The notes under the pieces: generated by a model
Database searches by the model: none
What the model saw: the letters and a program-made list of their open reading frames with translations, nothing else
Told to the model about the DNA's origin: nothing
Source of the DNA: Opitutales bacterium
GTDB taxonomy: Bacteria > Verrucomicrobiota > Verrucomicrobiia > Opitutales > PNEW01
DNA: 64,000 bases
Reading direction: 5' to 3'
Assembly: GCA_965197745.1 (NCBI GenBank)
Contig: CBDANS010000007.1
Span: 576,001-640,000, forward strand
Made by a program: the position numbers and the translations under genes
Shown here: positions 7,923 through 14,059 of the stretch, one piece after another
Layout of the letters: every line of letters starts with the position of its first letter
How positions within the stretch are numbered: the stretch's first letter is position 1

Positions 7923-9293
7923 TCATATTATTTTATAAATCCCATAGACACCGATGAGAACAATGACGATAGCGCTGGTCCAGAATGCGGTATCATAAAA
8001 TTTGCTGGGTTTTAGCTGTTCCGAAAGTCTCTTATAACGGAAATGGAACGCGGCGAAGACCACGAGCAGAAGAATAATCGAAGTAGAGACTCCACCGATC
8101 ATGACCATCAGGACCGGTAGTTTTATAAAAAGAAAGAGAAGGGACCAGATTATGGGAAATACCCATGCAAGGATGGCGATGGTCCGCATGCGTATTCTCG
8201 GGTCATAAAAATTAATTAAACCCATTTGACCGAGGGTGTCAGAGAAAACGCGGGTCCATGCCGCGAGGCCCGCAAAAAGCGTCGAGTATAAAACGACAAA
8301 GGCCCCAAGCAAATAAATGGCTTTAGCCTCAGCACCCAAGGTTTTAGTATACATTTCGGAGAGTATTTCAACCATAGCGTATCCCTGGGGAATATTGCTT
8401 TGGGCATGTAAGACGGCGGCACCAAGGAGGTAAAAAGCGGCGGTGACTAAAGTGTAGACCAACATGGCGAGAAGTGCATCGATATACATAACTTTAATCC
8501 AACCCTTCGCTCTATTCGTCCATTCCACTGTATTTTTACGAGGTCCAGTGTAAGTCGCATACCCTTTTTCTATGCACCAATAGTTGTAATACATGATCTC
8601 ATCTCCGCCCACGCCAGTGATACCAAAAGCCGCGATGGCGAAAACAACAGCTTCTGGAGGGAGTTTAAATTGAAGACCTTCAAGGATATTTACCCACGAA
8701 ATCGCGAAGGGAGTATATTGAAGATAGGCCAGCGAGATAAAAGTGAATATCGTAAAAAAGCCGATCATGATGATAGAAAATTTTTCTACGAATTGGTAGT
8801 ACCCGCGAAATACTAACAGTGATACAGAGAAAGCCACTATCCAGGTCCAGAGAGAGACGCTGATCTGATCAAAGGCTATATTCAATGTCAGCGCTACACC
8901 TCCAACGATACCGCCAACCTGCAGAAGCTTAAATATCATCAAAAACAACCACGTGCATATTGACCAGCTTACGACACCCAGTTTTGGTCCGGGCAGCTTG
9001 TTGAGCGATGCCATCGTCGATTCACCGGTATTTATAGCATGCTTACCGAATTCAAGCTGAAGCGCTACTTTTACAAAACAACTGACGAGGATTACCCAGA
9101 AAGTAACAAATCCAGCTCTGGCACCCAGCGTAGTGGTGGCTATCAATTCACCGGATCCTACAATTCCTGCTGATAAAATAAATCCCGGCCCAAGGTATTT
9201 AATCGTTTCCCGCAGAGACTGGGGAGGGTCCTTGACTGTCGAATCAGATATAAGATAGGGATTGGGGTTTTCCCCCACTGGATTCTTGTTCAT
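7923..9293 (-). CDS. Nramp-like/APC-superfamily transporter
   Basis: YLGPGFILSAGIVGSGELIATT..GA.AG; about 11 hydrophobic segments. Confidence 0.85.
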   Translation of the reverse strand: MNKNPVGENPNPYLISDSTVKDPPQSLRETIKYLGPGFILSAGIVGSGELIATTTLGARAGFVTFWVILVSCFVKVALQLEFGKHAINTGESTMASLNKLPGPKLGVVSWSICTWLFLMIFKLLQVGGIVGGVALTLNIAFDQISVSLWTWIVAFSVSLLVFRGYYQFVEKFSIIMIGFFTIFTFISLAYLQYTPFAISWVNILEGLQFKLPPEAVVFAIAAFGITGVGGDEIMYYNYWCIEKGYATYTGPRKNTVEWTNRAKGWIKVMYIDALLAMLVYTLVTAAFYLLGAAVLHAQSNIPQGYAMVEILSEMYTKTLGAEAKAIYLLGAFVVLYSTLFAGLAAWTRVFSDTLGQMGLINFYDPRIRMRTIAILAWVFPIIWSLLFLFIKLPVLMVMIGGVSTSIILLLVVFAAFHFRYKRLSEQLKPSKFYDTAFWTSAIVIVLIGVYGIYKII

Positions 9294-9357
9294 GCAAGCC
9301 TATGATTTCCAATACAAGGCAGTACAGAAAGTTTCTGAGTTAAAGGTGGTGCGAGAA

Positions 9358-9446
9358 AATCTTCGTCTTCGTCTGCCTCTTCGTCACTGAAGTAATTAAT
9401 AAATATGTATGTTACAATTTTTTAGAATTAGATAAAGATGAAGATT
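9358..9446. repeat. Empty element with AATCTTCGTCTTCGTC-type inverted ends
   Basis: AATCTTCGTCTTCGTCTGCCTCTTCGTC ... GATAAAGATGAAGATT with an AT-rich interior. Confidence 0.55.
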
Positions 9447-9475
9447 TAATGCTTATAGATGACGGTATTGGGCAG

Positions 9476-9898
9476 TTAATTATCGACCGGCTCTCTAAGT
9501 GAAAACCAGGGTTCCTCACTGCTCACATCCACCAGCGCCGGTCCGGTGAATATTGCCGGACTGAGAATGGCAAGAAAGACGAGCGCACTATTGCTCGTAT
9601 TATAGGTGCCGTGGACTTTATTGACGGGTATGTGCGCCATCTCACCGGCGCCCAGGATCCGATGATCACGCTCAACCCACTGCTCCGCCTCGCCTTCTAA
9701 AACGTAAATAATTTCTTCCATCGCGGGATGGCGATGAAACGCATGAGCCTTGCCTGGCGGCATATGAACGCGTACGAGAAGCAATCCTTCTGCTTCAGTC
9801 AACCCTGGCCGACACATCCAATGATGAGGGCCCCAGGGCAATTGCTCGACTTGAATATCGTTATTGGAGACAAATCGAAGCAACTGTTCTTTGCTCAT
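9476..9898 (-). CDS. Cupin domain protein
   Basis: HAFHRHPAMEEIIYVLEG ... GEMAHIPVNKVHGTYN cupin motifs. Confidence 0.85.
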   Translation of the reverse strand: MSKEQLLRFVSNNDIQVEQLPWGPHHWMCRPGLTEAEGLLLVRVHMPPGKAHAFHRHPAMEEIIYVLEGEAEQWVERDHRILGAGEMAHIPVNKVHGTYNTSNSALVFLAILSPAIFTGPALVDVSSEEPWFSLREPVDN

Positions 9899-9991
9899 AG
9901 CGGCAGCATATCCCCCTCGACCTTGCAATTGATCGAAGCCGTCCCATCAAGACAGGCGATGGTCTATGCCCTATTCTGAAGAATCTATAAT

Positions 9992-10189
9992 CTACTCAGA
10001 TGCTGAAAAATCTCTATCTTTTACGGTTTTACGGCGGTCTTTGCGTGCATTCTCGATAGCCTGATCGCAGAGGCCTTTCACGATATCAGATAGCGCTGAT
10101 GCCGCGCTTGCGGATGTATTCATTGACGCTTTTTCGCGAACATATTTTTTAAGCTTCGATATGACTACCAATATATCAGAATTACTCAT
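9992..10189 (-). CDS. Bacterial histone-fold protein (Bd0055/HBb-like singlet)
   Basis: 65 aa, basic. LVVISKLKKYV..KASMNTS, a long central helix, then ARKDRRKTVKDRDF (RxTxxxxD motif). RBS GGAGA 6 nt upstream. Confidence 0.85.
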   Translation of the reverse strand: MSNSDILVVISKLKKYVREKASMNTSASAASALSDIVKGLCDQAIENARKDRRKTVKDRDFSASE

Positions 10190-10756
10190 GTTTTATCTCC
10201 AATTTTTATTTATTTTATGGATGATTAGGGTTAACTTAATCGTTAATATTATGGCAATAGTATTTTATTGCTCTCTAATTCAATCCCTAGGGGTTTCTCT
10301 GCTTTCAGTCAACCTTTGAGCAAAAATAATTATTCACCTCACTTTTATTCATTTTTGTGAATTTCTCACTTGGTTTAGAATTTATAGATCACCACGTATG
10401 CCCAATGTTCATCGTGAAGGTTACTTATTTTTTGATTCGATGCTGGTTCATGAATGGTATTATTAATAATATTTTTCCTCAAGTTTCTCCCCATGATCTT
10501 TACTGAAGAATATTCCGTTCATATTTTATTGATTCAGAAATATCAATAAATAGTGTCTTTGCTTTATATAAAATTGGGTCATTTACCCAGGGGAAAGGTG
10601 TTTTAAAAGCTTTATTGCTTGATATTAGCGAAAAATCTCTGATAAATTATTATCGTTACGTCCCGAAAGCTAGATTACTATCCCAATCGGCTGTTTAAAG
10701 TACCTGAAGATTTCACGTTTAAAAGAGGTGAAAACAGTCCCATTTTCTGGCTATAA

Positions 10757-13700
10757 ATGAGATTAGATAAAAGATATTTTAAGTTTCTTATACGTGCATT
10801 AACTTTGTTTGCACTATGCTGCTGTTTATCGCCAAAACTTCGGGCGCAAGTATTTGACTGGAACCTCAATGGCAATGGCAACTGGAGTGTGGCCGGCAAC
10901 TGGACACCGGGTGGAGGTCCCCCCAACGCCATCGGTGACACCGCCAACTTTGGAACCGTTAGTACCGGCAACAACCGTAATGTCACGGTAGACATTAATG
11001 TCGTGGTCGGGCAGATGGATTTCTTTCACGACACGAATAACAAAGAATACAATATCATTGGCACCAACACCATCACCTTTGATGTGAGCAGCGGCAATGC
11101 CTCGCTCACTGTGGACATGCAGGACAAGAGCAGAATATTAGCCCCTATAGCCCTCAATGACGACCTCGATTATTTTAACGCCAACACACAGAACTTCCGT
11201 ATCCAGGGAAACATCTCGGGTACGGGGGGAATCACCCACCAGGGAGGACAACTGACTTTTGAAAACGGAGGCACCAATACCTACAGCGGAGACACCGTTG
11301 TCGAAGACGGGACCCTGTCTTTAGATAGAAGCAGTGTCAATGGAGCGATTGACTCAGATCTTACTATAGGTGACGGAGTGGGAGCAGCGGGCAGTGCCAT
11401 TGTCGAATACGCCAATCGCAATGATCAGATCTCTGACACCAGCGCGGTCACGATACTGTCGGATGGACTGCTCGATCTCACCAATGAGGACGAAACGATC
11501 GGGTCGCTCTCCAGTTCGAGCACGGCTGCAGAAGTGCAGTTGGGGACTTCACCACAAGGAACGCTTACCGTGGGCGATGCTACGAATGCGACATTTGACG
11601 GTGTCATTTCGGAGAGTGGCGATATTGTCAAGCAGGGCGACGGGACCTGGACTTTAACCAATAATAACACCTATGACGGGACCACGACGATCAACAATGG
11701 TGTCCTCGAAATCGAAGACGCCAGTGCCCTCGGCGATACCACCAGCGACACAACGGTCAACAGTGGTGGCACCTTAGCCCTCGATACGGGAATCACGGTT
11801 ACAGGAGAAGGCCTCACTTTAAACGGCACCGGAGAGGCTGGCACTGCGGGAGCCTTACAGAACATTTCCGGCACCAACGAATGGCAGGGAGCCGTCGACT
11901 TGGGATCGACTGCCACTATCATTTCACTAGCTGGCAGCATAGATATCAGTGGTGACATTGACAATCAGACATTTGATATTACTGTAGACGGCGCTGGAAA
12001 CACGACTTTCAGTGGTGTTGTATCCGATTCGGGTGATCTGATCAAAGACGGTGCGGGCACGCTCACCATATCAGGCATCAATACCTACACCGGTTCCACT
12101 ACAATTAATAATGGTACTGTAAGTATCAGCGCAGACAGTGGTTTAGGGACAGCGCCAGGAGCGGCAACTCCCGGCCATCTCACCTTTGACGGAGGTACCC
12201 TAAATACAAGTGCCACCTTCTCTCTGGACAGTAATCGGGGAATCACCTTAAATGCAGGAAACGGCACGATCGATACGGATTTTGGAGCGACGTTGACCTA
12301 TGGGGGAATCATTGCCGGGACCGGAGATTTAACTAAGGACGGAACGGGCACGCTCACGCTTTCAGGGGTCAACACTTACACCGGATCGACGACCATCGAT
12401 GGGGGCACCTTAAGCATCAGCGCCGACAGTGGTTTAGGGACAGCCCCCGGAGCGGCCACCCCCGGCCACCTTACCTTTGACGGAGGCACGCTTAATACCA
12501 CTGCTACCTTCACTTTAGACAGCAACCGTGGAATCGCCTTAAACGCGGGCGGCGGAACAATTGAAACCGATGCTGCCACGACGTTGACCTACGGGGGAAT
12601 GATGGCCGGCACGGGAAGCTTCGATAAGACCGGTACGGGGACCCTGTCCTGGATGGCGTCAATACTTACACCGGCACGACCACGGTGCAGGCGGGGACCC
12701 TCGAGGTCACCGATCCGAGCGCCCTGGGCGGCACCGGCAGTGGGACCGTGGTCCAGTCCGGAGCGACGCTGGAGGTATCTACCATAGCCGCGAACATGTC
12801 AGCGGAGCCATTGACCATCAATGGCACCGGAGTGGGCGGCGTAGGCGCGCTGTATTGGACCGATGTAGGATTTGATGAATGGACCGGAGACATCAACCCT
12901 CGGCTCCAATGCCACGATCACTAATGCTGCGGGAGGGATCATGCCCATCAGTGGGAATATTGATCTGAACGGAAGCACGCTGACCGTTGATACCGGTGAT
13001 TTAGCCGGGATGGTTTCAGGTTCAGTGATCAGTGGAACAGGTAATTTTGTAAAAGATGGCACGAGCACCTGGTTTGTCCAGGGAGGGACTAATACCTACA
13101 CCGGATCAACGACCATTAACGACGGGACCATGAATCTGAACGTAGCCGGTGGATCCTCTGTTCCCGGAGCCCTGGTCATTGGTGACGGCGTGGGGGCAAC
13201 CGGATCAGCCATTGCCTTTGTCGGCAGCAGCGAACAGATCGCTGACACCTTGGCAGCGACCATCGATTCTGACGGACGCCTCGACGTAAACAGTTTCAGT
13301 GAAACGATCGGTTCCTTAAGCAGCGGCAGTGCCACGGCCCAGGTCTTCCTCGATGCGGGGACCCTGACCGTAGGAGATGCCACGAGCACCACTTTTGCGG
13401 GCGTAATCTCGGAGACCGGAGACCTTGTGAAAGAGGGCACGGGCACCTTGACCTTAACCGGCACGAACAGTTTCAGCGGAGACACCACGGTCAATGCGGG
13501 AACCCTGGAACTGAACAACGGAGCGGGCAATGCCCTCGACGGCACGGCAACAGTGATCATCACCGGGGGCAGTTTGCTCTTAAGTGGTGATGACCAGGTC
13601 GTGGACACCGCGAACATGGAATTGGATGGAGGGATCTTTGACAGCGACGGTTTCGATGAAGTGTTGGGAACGCTTACCCTGTCCTCGGACTCGTCAATCG

Positions 13701-14059
13701 ATTTAGGCACCGGAACAAGCATTATAGACTTTGACGACAGCAGCGGGTTGGAACTGGCGTGGACGGACTCGGGACAGATACTGTCAATACTGGACTACAC
13801 CGGTGACACCAACGGGGGAGGCATCGACCAGATTATATTTGGATCGGCGGGGTTGACCGACTCGCAGTTAGCGCAGATAAGGTTCGTCAATCCGTGGGGA
13901 ACGAGTAAGACCTTTCACGCGCGTTTTCAAGGGGACGAGATCGTTCCTGTCCCCGAAACCTCGACTTACCTCTACGGTGGCTTGATCCTAACCCTCATCG
14001 GTTGGCGTGAACGCCACCGCTTGTCTGGTTGGATAAAAAAAATTCAGACTCGAAGGTAG
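10757..14059 (+). pseudogene. Autotransporter-associated beta-strand (passenger) repeat surface protein with C-terminal PEP-CTERM-like sorting signal; broken by two compensating 1-bp indels
   Basis: Signal peptide, many L.K.G.GTLTLSG.NTYTG.TTI..GTL repeats, and [26 protein letters not shown]. Frame slips near 12647 (-1) and 12895 (+1). About 1100 aa if repaired. Confidence 0.85.

Follow-up and report, generated by a model that had tools for sequence, protein, structure and literature searches.

An HBb-type histone gene conserved within one Opitutales family of the Verrucomicrobiota

The window analysed here is a 64,000-nucleotide stretch of DNA from an Opitutales bacterium. It carries on its minus strand a short gene for a histone, followed downstream by two further minus-strand genes and preceded by a long AT-rich region. 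The features of this locus, with the evidence by which each was recognised, are the following:

7923..9293, minus strand: NRAMP-family divalent-metal transporter gene, next downstream after the cupin gene (NCBIfam NF037982, 105 bits for a cut-off of 50)
9476..9928, minus strand: gene with a Cupin_2 domain, next to the histone gene downstream (Pfam PF07883, E 5.7e-17)
9992..10189, minus strand: histone gene, encoding a 65-aa HBb-type alpha3-truncated histone (ORF, phmmer against the PDB and AF2 model)
10190..10756, no strand: AT-rich intergenic region of 567 bp with a GC content of 0.30-0.35, separating the histone gene from a divergently oriented PATR-repeat gene (composition profile)
10197..10200, minus strand: Shine-Dalgarno sequence GGAG, 7 nt before the ATG (sequence and upstream alignment)
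10248..10277, minus strand: promoter-like candidate, TAGAGA, 18 nt, CATAAT, with TG before the -10 (consensus scan)
10306..10321, minus strand: invariant 16-nt block GCTCAAAGGTTGACTG with a TTGACT -35-like hexamer (upstream alignment)

The histone ORF comprises 65 codons from its ATG start. Its frame extends over only 66 aa from stop to stop, which leaves no room for a longer or fused form, so that the protein is a true singlet without N-terminal extension. The first-pass annotation of this DNA had placed the ORF correctly at 9992..10189 but did not give its strand, and the peptide it printed was right in its residues but lacked the last four. Its description of a basic 65-aa protein with a good ribosome binding site and about 570 bp of AT-rich upstream sequence agrees with the ATG ORF, with a pI of 9.5 (13 K+R versus 9 D+E), with the position of the GGAG and with the length and composition of the intergenic region, the GC content of the 4.45-Mb genome being 0.455. 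Used as queries against the source genome, PF00808, PF09123 and the protein sequence all led to this locus only, and hence to no second histone or histone doublet. Pairwise comparisons with three orthologues gave dN/dS values of 0.089-0.093 at a dS of about 1.2-1.3 (Nei-Gojobori). The histone gene is under strong purifying selection and is more than a chance ORF.

The upstream alignment revealed conservation close to the gene. The sequence AATTGGAGA around the ribosome binding site does not differ between the four orthologous loci. The 16-nt block, located 117-132 nt ahead of the histone start codon, is likewise identical in four of four loci despite near-saturated synonymous sites in the gene, and neither the window nor the rest of the 4.45-Mb genome contains a second copy of it. 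Judged by its sequence, the block may be a candidate promoter, with TTGACT as the -35-like hexamer, or an operator element. The consensus scan detected 2 promoter-like sites in the region versus 4.1 expected, which is not significant alone; the site at 10248..10277 is the sole one on the minus strand, and its CTATTG...TAA part is conserved in the orthologues. Scanning positions 9300-10800 against Rfam gave no match at E <= 1. On the far side of the AT-rich region, three plus-strand ORFs with PATR repeats (autotransporter-associated; 10757-12787, 12685-12924 and 12872-14059) overlap in different frames, and the tail of the first of them appears to be out of frame. These ORFs may represent one large gene broken by frameshifts or assembly errors.

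Downstream, the histone and cupin genes are separated by 63 nt, in which the scan found no terminator site and the folding z-score was -0.15; co-transcription of the two genes is possible. The order histone-cupin-NRAMP is conserved in three relatives, with amino acid identities of 72-79% for the cupin protein and 73-87% for the transporter, while relatives in other phyla were identified via the histone alone. The NRAMP-family protein itself had no Pfam match even at E <= 10 and appears to belong to a divergent NRAMP clade.

In a phmmer search of the PDB, the best matches of the histone were chains of HBb (Bd0055) from Bdellovibrio (8cmp_A, E 5.9e-12; 8fvx_A, 7.2e-12), with a gap-free alignment over residues 4-61 in which 27 of 58 positions are identical. 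Weaker matches were obtained for HLp of Leptospira (9qt0, 5.7e-6), HmvA (1e-3), Asgard histone A (5e-3) and HMfB (0.75). Seventy of 71 candidate proteins matched the histone at E <= 0.001, and a family profile, A1, was assembled from the window protein and 49 of these 70 homologues (50 rows). The profile matched HBb at E 2.6e-22, and by phmmer and family profile HBb was ahead of the other PDB matches by at least six orders of magnitude. Residues S11, K12, K14, R53, T55, D58, R59 and D60 are invariant in all 50 rows. They include R53, T55 and D60, which form the R-x-T-x-x-x-x-D motif that the first-pass annotation had read as a histone-fold signature.

An HMM comparison with CBFD_NFYB_HMF, DUF1931 and Bd0055, which the same annotation had proposed, gave a strong match to Bd0055/HBb and scores below threshold for the curated models: 17.4 bits for PF00808 (CBFD_NFYB_HMF; cut-off 21.4) and 14.6 bits for PF09123 (DUF1931; cut-off 21.8). 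The score for NCBIfam archaea_histone (NF043032) was also below its cut-off (23.9 bits; cut-off 50). PF00808 matched 29 of the 50 family members at E <= 0.01, and the deposited HBb structures bear the CBFD_NFYB_HMF name. The Pfam PF00808 and NCBIfam archaea_histone models fit the HBb-type subfamily poorly, and it is because scores fall under the Pfam and NCBIfam cut-offs that the relatives are mostly named 'hypothetical protein'. The expectation that a gene of this kind is easily missed by annotation is thus correct as regards domain models and protein names, but the protein collection already contains an identical sequence, from 4 contigs, and an orthologue is listed in Table S1 of Hocher et al. 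2023 (PMC10627809).

An AF2 model built on A1 (mean pLDDT 88) consists of alpha1 (residues 10-21), alpha2 (27-50) and a one-turn alpha3 (58-60). The five best Foldseek matches in the PDB were all HBb (9ezz, 8fvx, 9f0e, 8cmp), with TM scores of 0.83-0.89 by query and 0.89-0.95 by target and an rmsd of 0.8-1.1 A. HLp and HTkC followed, and HMfB reached a TM score of 0.60 only. Relative to HmvA and Asgard histone A, alpha2 of the histone has a 4-residue gap. The AlphaFold dimer model that had been suggested for this protein predicts a homodimer, with a score of 0.61 (0.61, 0.66 and 0.61 in three runs) versus 0.00 for the best of three controls, a partner pLDDT of at least 80 and contacts that agree between runs to at least 98%. 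The best-supported contacts run between the chains, from L1 (residues 23-26) to L2 (54-57), as in the histone handshake. In calibration, the mark was reached by 20 of 30 solved homomers and by 1 of 23 solved single chains. The histone-fold dimer is a prediction only, whose score indicates likeness, not binding; as HBb dimers have already been solved, the network may be reproducing a similar complex that it has encountered before.

Schwab et al. 2024 (PMC11390915), in the available portions of the article, describe alpha3-truncated histones as having an alpha3 reduced to 3-4 residues and an alpha2 that is also shortened, by about 4-5 residues relative to nucleosomal histones, and define a 'bacterial dimer' category via sequence clustering with HBb. 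The window histone clusters by sequence with HBb, and its AF2 model has the short alpha3 and alpha2. Its S-K motif (S11-K12), K14, R53-K54-T55 and D60 are (nearly) invariant in the 50 family members, and it is a bacterial singlet without extra domain, as seen from the 66-aa frame and from the HU genes, the PATR-repeat protein and the Opitutales relatives. It is an HBb/Bd0055-type alpha3-truncated 'bacterial dimer' singlet. The first-pass annotation had made this assignment, and it is supported alike by phmmer (5.9e-12), by the profile (2.6e-22) and by the top rank of HBb in Foldseek. Two other classes were considered and rejected. Against the nucleosomal archaeal (HMfB-type) class stand the one-turn alpha3, the TM score of 0.60 to HMfB and the E-value of 0.75; against the DUF1931 (PF09123)/face-to-face HLp class stand the 14.6 bits for a cut-off of 21.8 and an HLp match (5.7e-6) far weaker than that to HBb.

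With the gap-free alignment, residue numbers of the window histone equal those of HBb plus 2, which allows the DNA contacts of HBb to be transferred directly. The ten main DNA-contact residues named in the available text of Hu et al. 2024 (PMC11317129) are T8, S9, K10, K12, K16, N22, S24, K52, T53 and R57. Eight of these ten (S9, K10, K12, N22, S24, K52, T53 and R57) are identical in the window histone, K16 is replaced by Arg and T8 by Ile (I10 in the histone's own numbering). The RD clamp of HBb, R51-D58, and the additional D49 are retained as R53, D60 and D51.

In a collection of species-representative genomes at least 550 relatives were confirmed, of which the best 80 were kept. Among these best 80, the phyla given in record titles comprise Bdellovibrionota, Planctomycetota, Myxococcota, Nitrospirota, Gammaproteobacteria, Chlamydiota, Latescibacterota, Gemmatimonadota and others. 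Among the 80, the named records nearest to the window histone are an Opitutales MAG with two loci (82% and 71% identity) and Verrucomicrobia bacterium Opi.OSU.00C, also with two loci (85% and 64%). These Opitutales and Verrucomicrobia relatives, syntenic at the 82-85% loci, agree with the 'probable Verrucomicrobiota lineage' to which the DNA had initially been ascribed. The histone gene is present in all four genomes of the GTDB family, the other three carrying two copies each. Of the order's 36 other sampled families, 35 had no match and the remaining one had a single weak match (E 7.6e-4), and among 400 other genomes across the phylum none matched at E <= 1e-5; 380 of the 401 phylum genomes searched are at least 90% complete. 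Presence throughout the family and absence elsewhere in the searched part of the phylum points to one old acquisition. The weak match (L090, G007:C82:11696-11827) covers profile positions 7-51 within a 258-aa frame. It was not counted as a histone, and could be due to chance or to a fused histone-fold domain.

A quick maximum-likelihood tree was computed from 67 columns and 83 rows, after seven others had been left out: L001-L003, which represent the same place as L088, and L087, L089, L092 and L093, whose ORFs scored the same as L035, L007, L006 and L034. The seven sequences of the family fall on one side of a branch with an SH-aLRT support of 76, and divide into paralogue A (the window histone, L006, L035 and L086; support 86) and paralogue B (L007, L091 and L034; support 96). 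Of the inner branches, 48 of 80 are unresolved and no sister group is supported. A transfer from Bdellovibrionota or Planctomycetota had been put forward as a question for phylogeny; with 67 columns and no supported sister, the tree supports neither as donor and names no other. A histone from a further record titled Verrucomicrobia (isolate SZAS-1, L049:3001-3183) falls in a distant part of the tree, and may stem from an independent acquisition or from a genome that was mis-binned or is classified differently.

Paralogue B (60-71% identical) occurs in the sister genus, in Opi.OSU.00C and two other genomes. The genes flanking it in L007 map to C4:90129-95446 of the source genome with 81-91% amino acid identity. 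At this syntenic site the intergenic gap measures about 170 bp in the source genome versus about 500 bp in L007; the difference is a clean indel of about 330 bp, which spans all of paralogue B and the sequence upstream of it, no trace of either being left in the source genome (G000:C4:92834-93006 versus L007:2849-3343). Because B branches outside the A clade, loss of paralogue B in the genus of the window is the simpler reading, and the branching order tentatively suggests that it took place.

Taken together, we consider it likely that the protein is an HBb-like dimeric DNA bender or coater which acts as a nucleoid-associated protein alongside HU, and whose gene was acquired a single time and inherited vertically. 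This reading builds on the family membership, fold, conserved contacts, predicted dimer, selection and distribution described above. In mechanistic terms, two histone chains would form a histone-fold handshake dimer that binds the DNA backbone without sequence specificity. The backbone would be contacted by the first turn of alpha1 (S11-K12, K14, R18) and by the paired L1/L2 loops (N24-T25-S26; K54-T55, R59), with R53 held in place by D60, as the RD clamp, and by D51. The dimer would thereby grip the backbone at minor grooves and bend or coat the DNA. Because alpha3 is a single turn, no four-helix bundle is expected, nor are tetramers, nucleosomes or hypernucleosomes, and without a four-helix bundle the histone would act as a nucleoid-associated protein beside HU rather than as a nucleosome former. 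The gene would have entered an ancestor of the Opitutales family once and passed vertically under purifying selection ever since. It is by analogy to HBb that we infer DNA binding and bending, as well as abundance and a global role. For HBb, the available portions of Hu et al. 2024 (PMC11317129) report dimers that bend DNA, by about 84 degrees over 36 bp in MD, with no nucleosome or hypernucleosome wrapping. Two HU/IHF-family (PF00216) genes accompany the single histone gene in the genome (G000:C7:746601-746873, minus strand; G000:C5:245317-245586, plus strand). Given that HBb dimers form no nucleosomes in that account (PMC11317129) and that two HU/IHF genes coexist with the histone, the initial proposal of a histone-based chromatin goes too far. 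Against the HBb-like bender or coater stand the replacement of the HBb contact T8 by Ile and the sub-threshold Pfam and NCBIfam scores, and the tight conserved linkage to the cupin and NRAMP genes would also fit a more local role.

How an HBb-type dimer engages DNA is itself disputed, as bending dimers and straight filaments have both been put forward for HBb according to the available text of two studies (PMC11390915, PMC11317129). At high density, dimers of the window histone might cover the DNA end-on, giving nucleohistone filaments that are straight and stiff. The available accounts relate that the first HBb-DNA co-crystal suggested filaments which neither bend nor wrap DNA (PMC11390915, PMC11317129), and the interface residues K12, T23, S24, A25, K52, T53 and R57 of HBb are all conserved here. 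We nonetheless regard this mode as unlikely, in view of the TPM, ligase-circularisation and MD results in the available portions of Hu et al. 2024 (PMC11317129), according to which single dimers bend DNA; sequence alone does not discriminate between the two modes. Somewhat less probable still is a locus-specific regulator that acts mainly on its own operon with the cupin and NRAMP genes, or on a small regulon, and has no global nucleoid role. Such a function would be in keeping with the gene order kept in three relatives, the 63-nt gap to the cupin gene without terminator-like structure and the invariant 16-nt element upstream. It is at odds with the retention of the HBb contact residues (8 of 10 identical), given that HBb binding is not sequence-specific in the available text of PMC11317129, and with the location of the second paralogue of the sister genus in an unrelated neighbourhood.

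A histone that forms nucleosome-like particles or hypernucleosomes is very improbable. Histone fold, RKT motif and RD clamp are indeed common to archaeal histones, but alpha3 has one turn (58-60), alpha2 lacks 4 residues that HmvA and Asgard histone A possess, the TM score to HMfB is 0.60 versus 0.9 for HBb, and HBb has neither tetramerisation residues nor wrapping according to the available portions of Hu et al. 2024 (PMC11317129). That the ORF is spurious or decaying and functionless could be argued from its very short length; the chance of this is close to nil, since the dN/dS of about 0.09 at near-saturated dS, the conserved ribosome binding site, the frame intact across all genomes of the GTDB family and homologues in the hundreds all speak against it, and the selection signal has already effectively refuted it. 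Beyond the HBb-like bender or coater, one may imagine that the histone is a major nucleoid protein whose gene one family of free-living Opitutales acquired horizontally and retained, with a duplication in a sister genus, and whose expression is wired through the conserved cupin-NRAMP operon and the invariant upstream element to metal or oxidative-stress status. We give this idea little credence; if true, a bacterium that is neither predatory nor pathogenic would be using a histone as a stress-responsive chromatin protein.

Bacterial histones have been characterised only recently, in Bdellovibrio and Leptospira. In its available portions, Hocher et al. 2023 (PMC10627809) describes bacterial singlets with the S-K and RKTV motifs and a patchy phyletic distribution, and stresses persistence in Bdellovibrionota, Leptospirales, Planctomycetota and Elusimicrobia. 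Supplementary Table S1 of that study contains the two Opi.OSU.00C proteins, PNEW01000051.1-7 and PNEW01000170.1-2. Among 89 occurrences of 'Verrucomicrobi' in the supplement, these two proteins are the only rows of Table S1, occurrences 3-32 all belonging to the genome list of Table S4. By word search, 'Verrucomicrobi' is absent from the main texts of Hocher 2023 (PMC10627809) and Schwab 2024 (PMC11390915), and both 'Verrucomicrobi' and 'Opitut' are absent from three of the four supplementary files of the latter. Verrucomicrobiota is not among the phyla listed in the available portions of Schwab 2024 (PMC11390915) and Hu 2024 (PMC11317129), and a full-text literature search, judged by titles and abstract openings, found no paper treating Verrucomicrobial histones. 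The histone is a new member of a known family, and its host lineage is catalogued but not discussed or characterised. The locus adds a clean case of family-level persistence within a phylum otherwise without the gene in the genomes searched, and its combination of presence, synteny and purifying selection is of the kind on which arguments for a functional bacterial histone, as opposed to a contaminant, are based. The gain is incremental, as the family, the fold and the likely mechanism are known and an orthologue already stands in a published table.

With archaeal nucleosomal histones (HMfB, 1A7W; HPhA, 1KU5; Asgard HHoB, 9QV5) the window histone has in common the fold, the RKT motif and the RD clamp, but it matches them at E 0.005-1 and a TM score of about 0.6 only; their own alpha2 is 4 residues longer and their alpha3 is of full length, which allows tetramers and hypernucleosomes. 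Closer in structure is HLp of Leptospira perolatii (9QT0-9QT2; DUF1931/face-to-face), which has a similar alpha3-truncated fold (TM 0.80-0.92), the S-K motif and an R-x-T-V L2 loop. It differs in its weaker match (E 5.7e-6 versus 5.9e-12 for HBb), one gap in L1 and an identity of 34-35%, and the available portions of Schwab et al. 2024 (PMC11390915) treat HLp-type histones as a separate category with dimer-dimer contacts. The orthologue from Opi.OSU.00C (PNEW01000051.1-7, L035) shows 85% identity to the window histone across the full 65-aa length, and the same cupin and NRAMP genes follow it; the difference between the two genomes lies in the second paralogue, present in Opi.OSU.00C and missing at the syntenic site in the genome of the window. 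Among characterised proteins, HBb of Bdellovibrio bacteriovorus (8CMP, 8FVX, 8FW7, 9EZZ, 9F0E) is the nearest match. The window histone differs from it in its host, a member of the Verrucomicrobiota (Opitutales), in its setting upstream of a cupin-NRAMP pair, and in the changes of T8 to Ile and K16 to Arg. It resembles HBb in length class (65 aa) and in the gapless alignment with 27 of 58 identical residues, and according to the model it has the same fold with a one-turn alpha3 and a short alpha2. Likewise common to both are the S-K at the start of alpha1, the N-T-S of the L1 loop, the RKT of the L2 loop, the RD clamp with its extra Asp, the coexistence with HU and the handshake dimer, which is predicted for the window histone.
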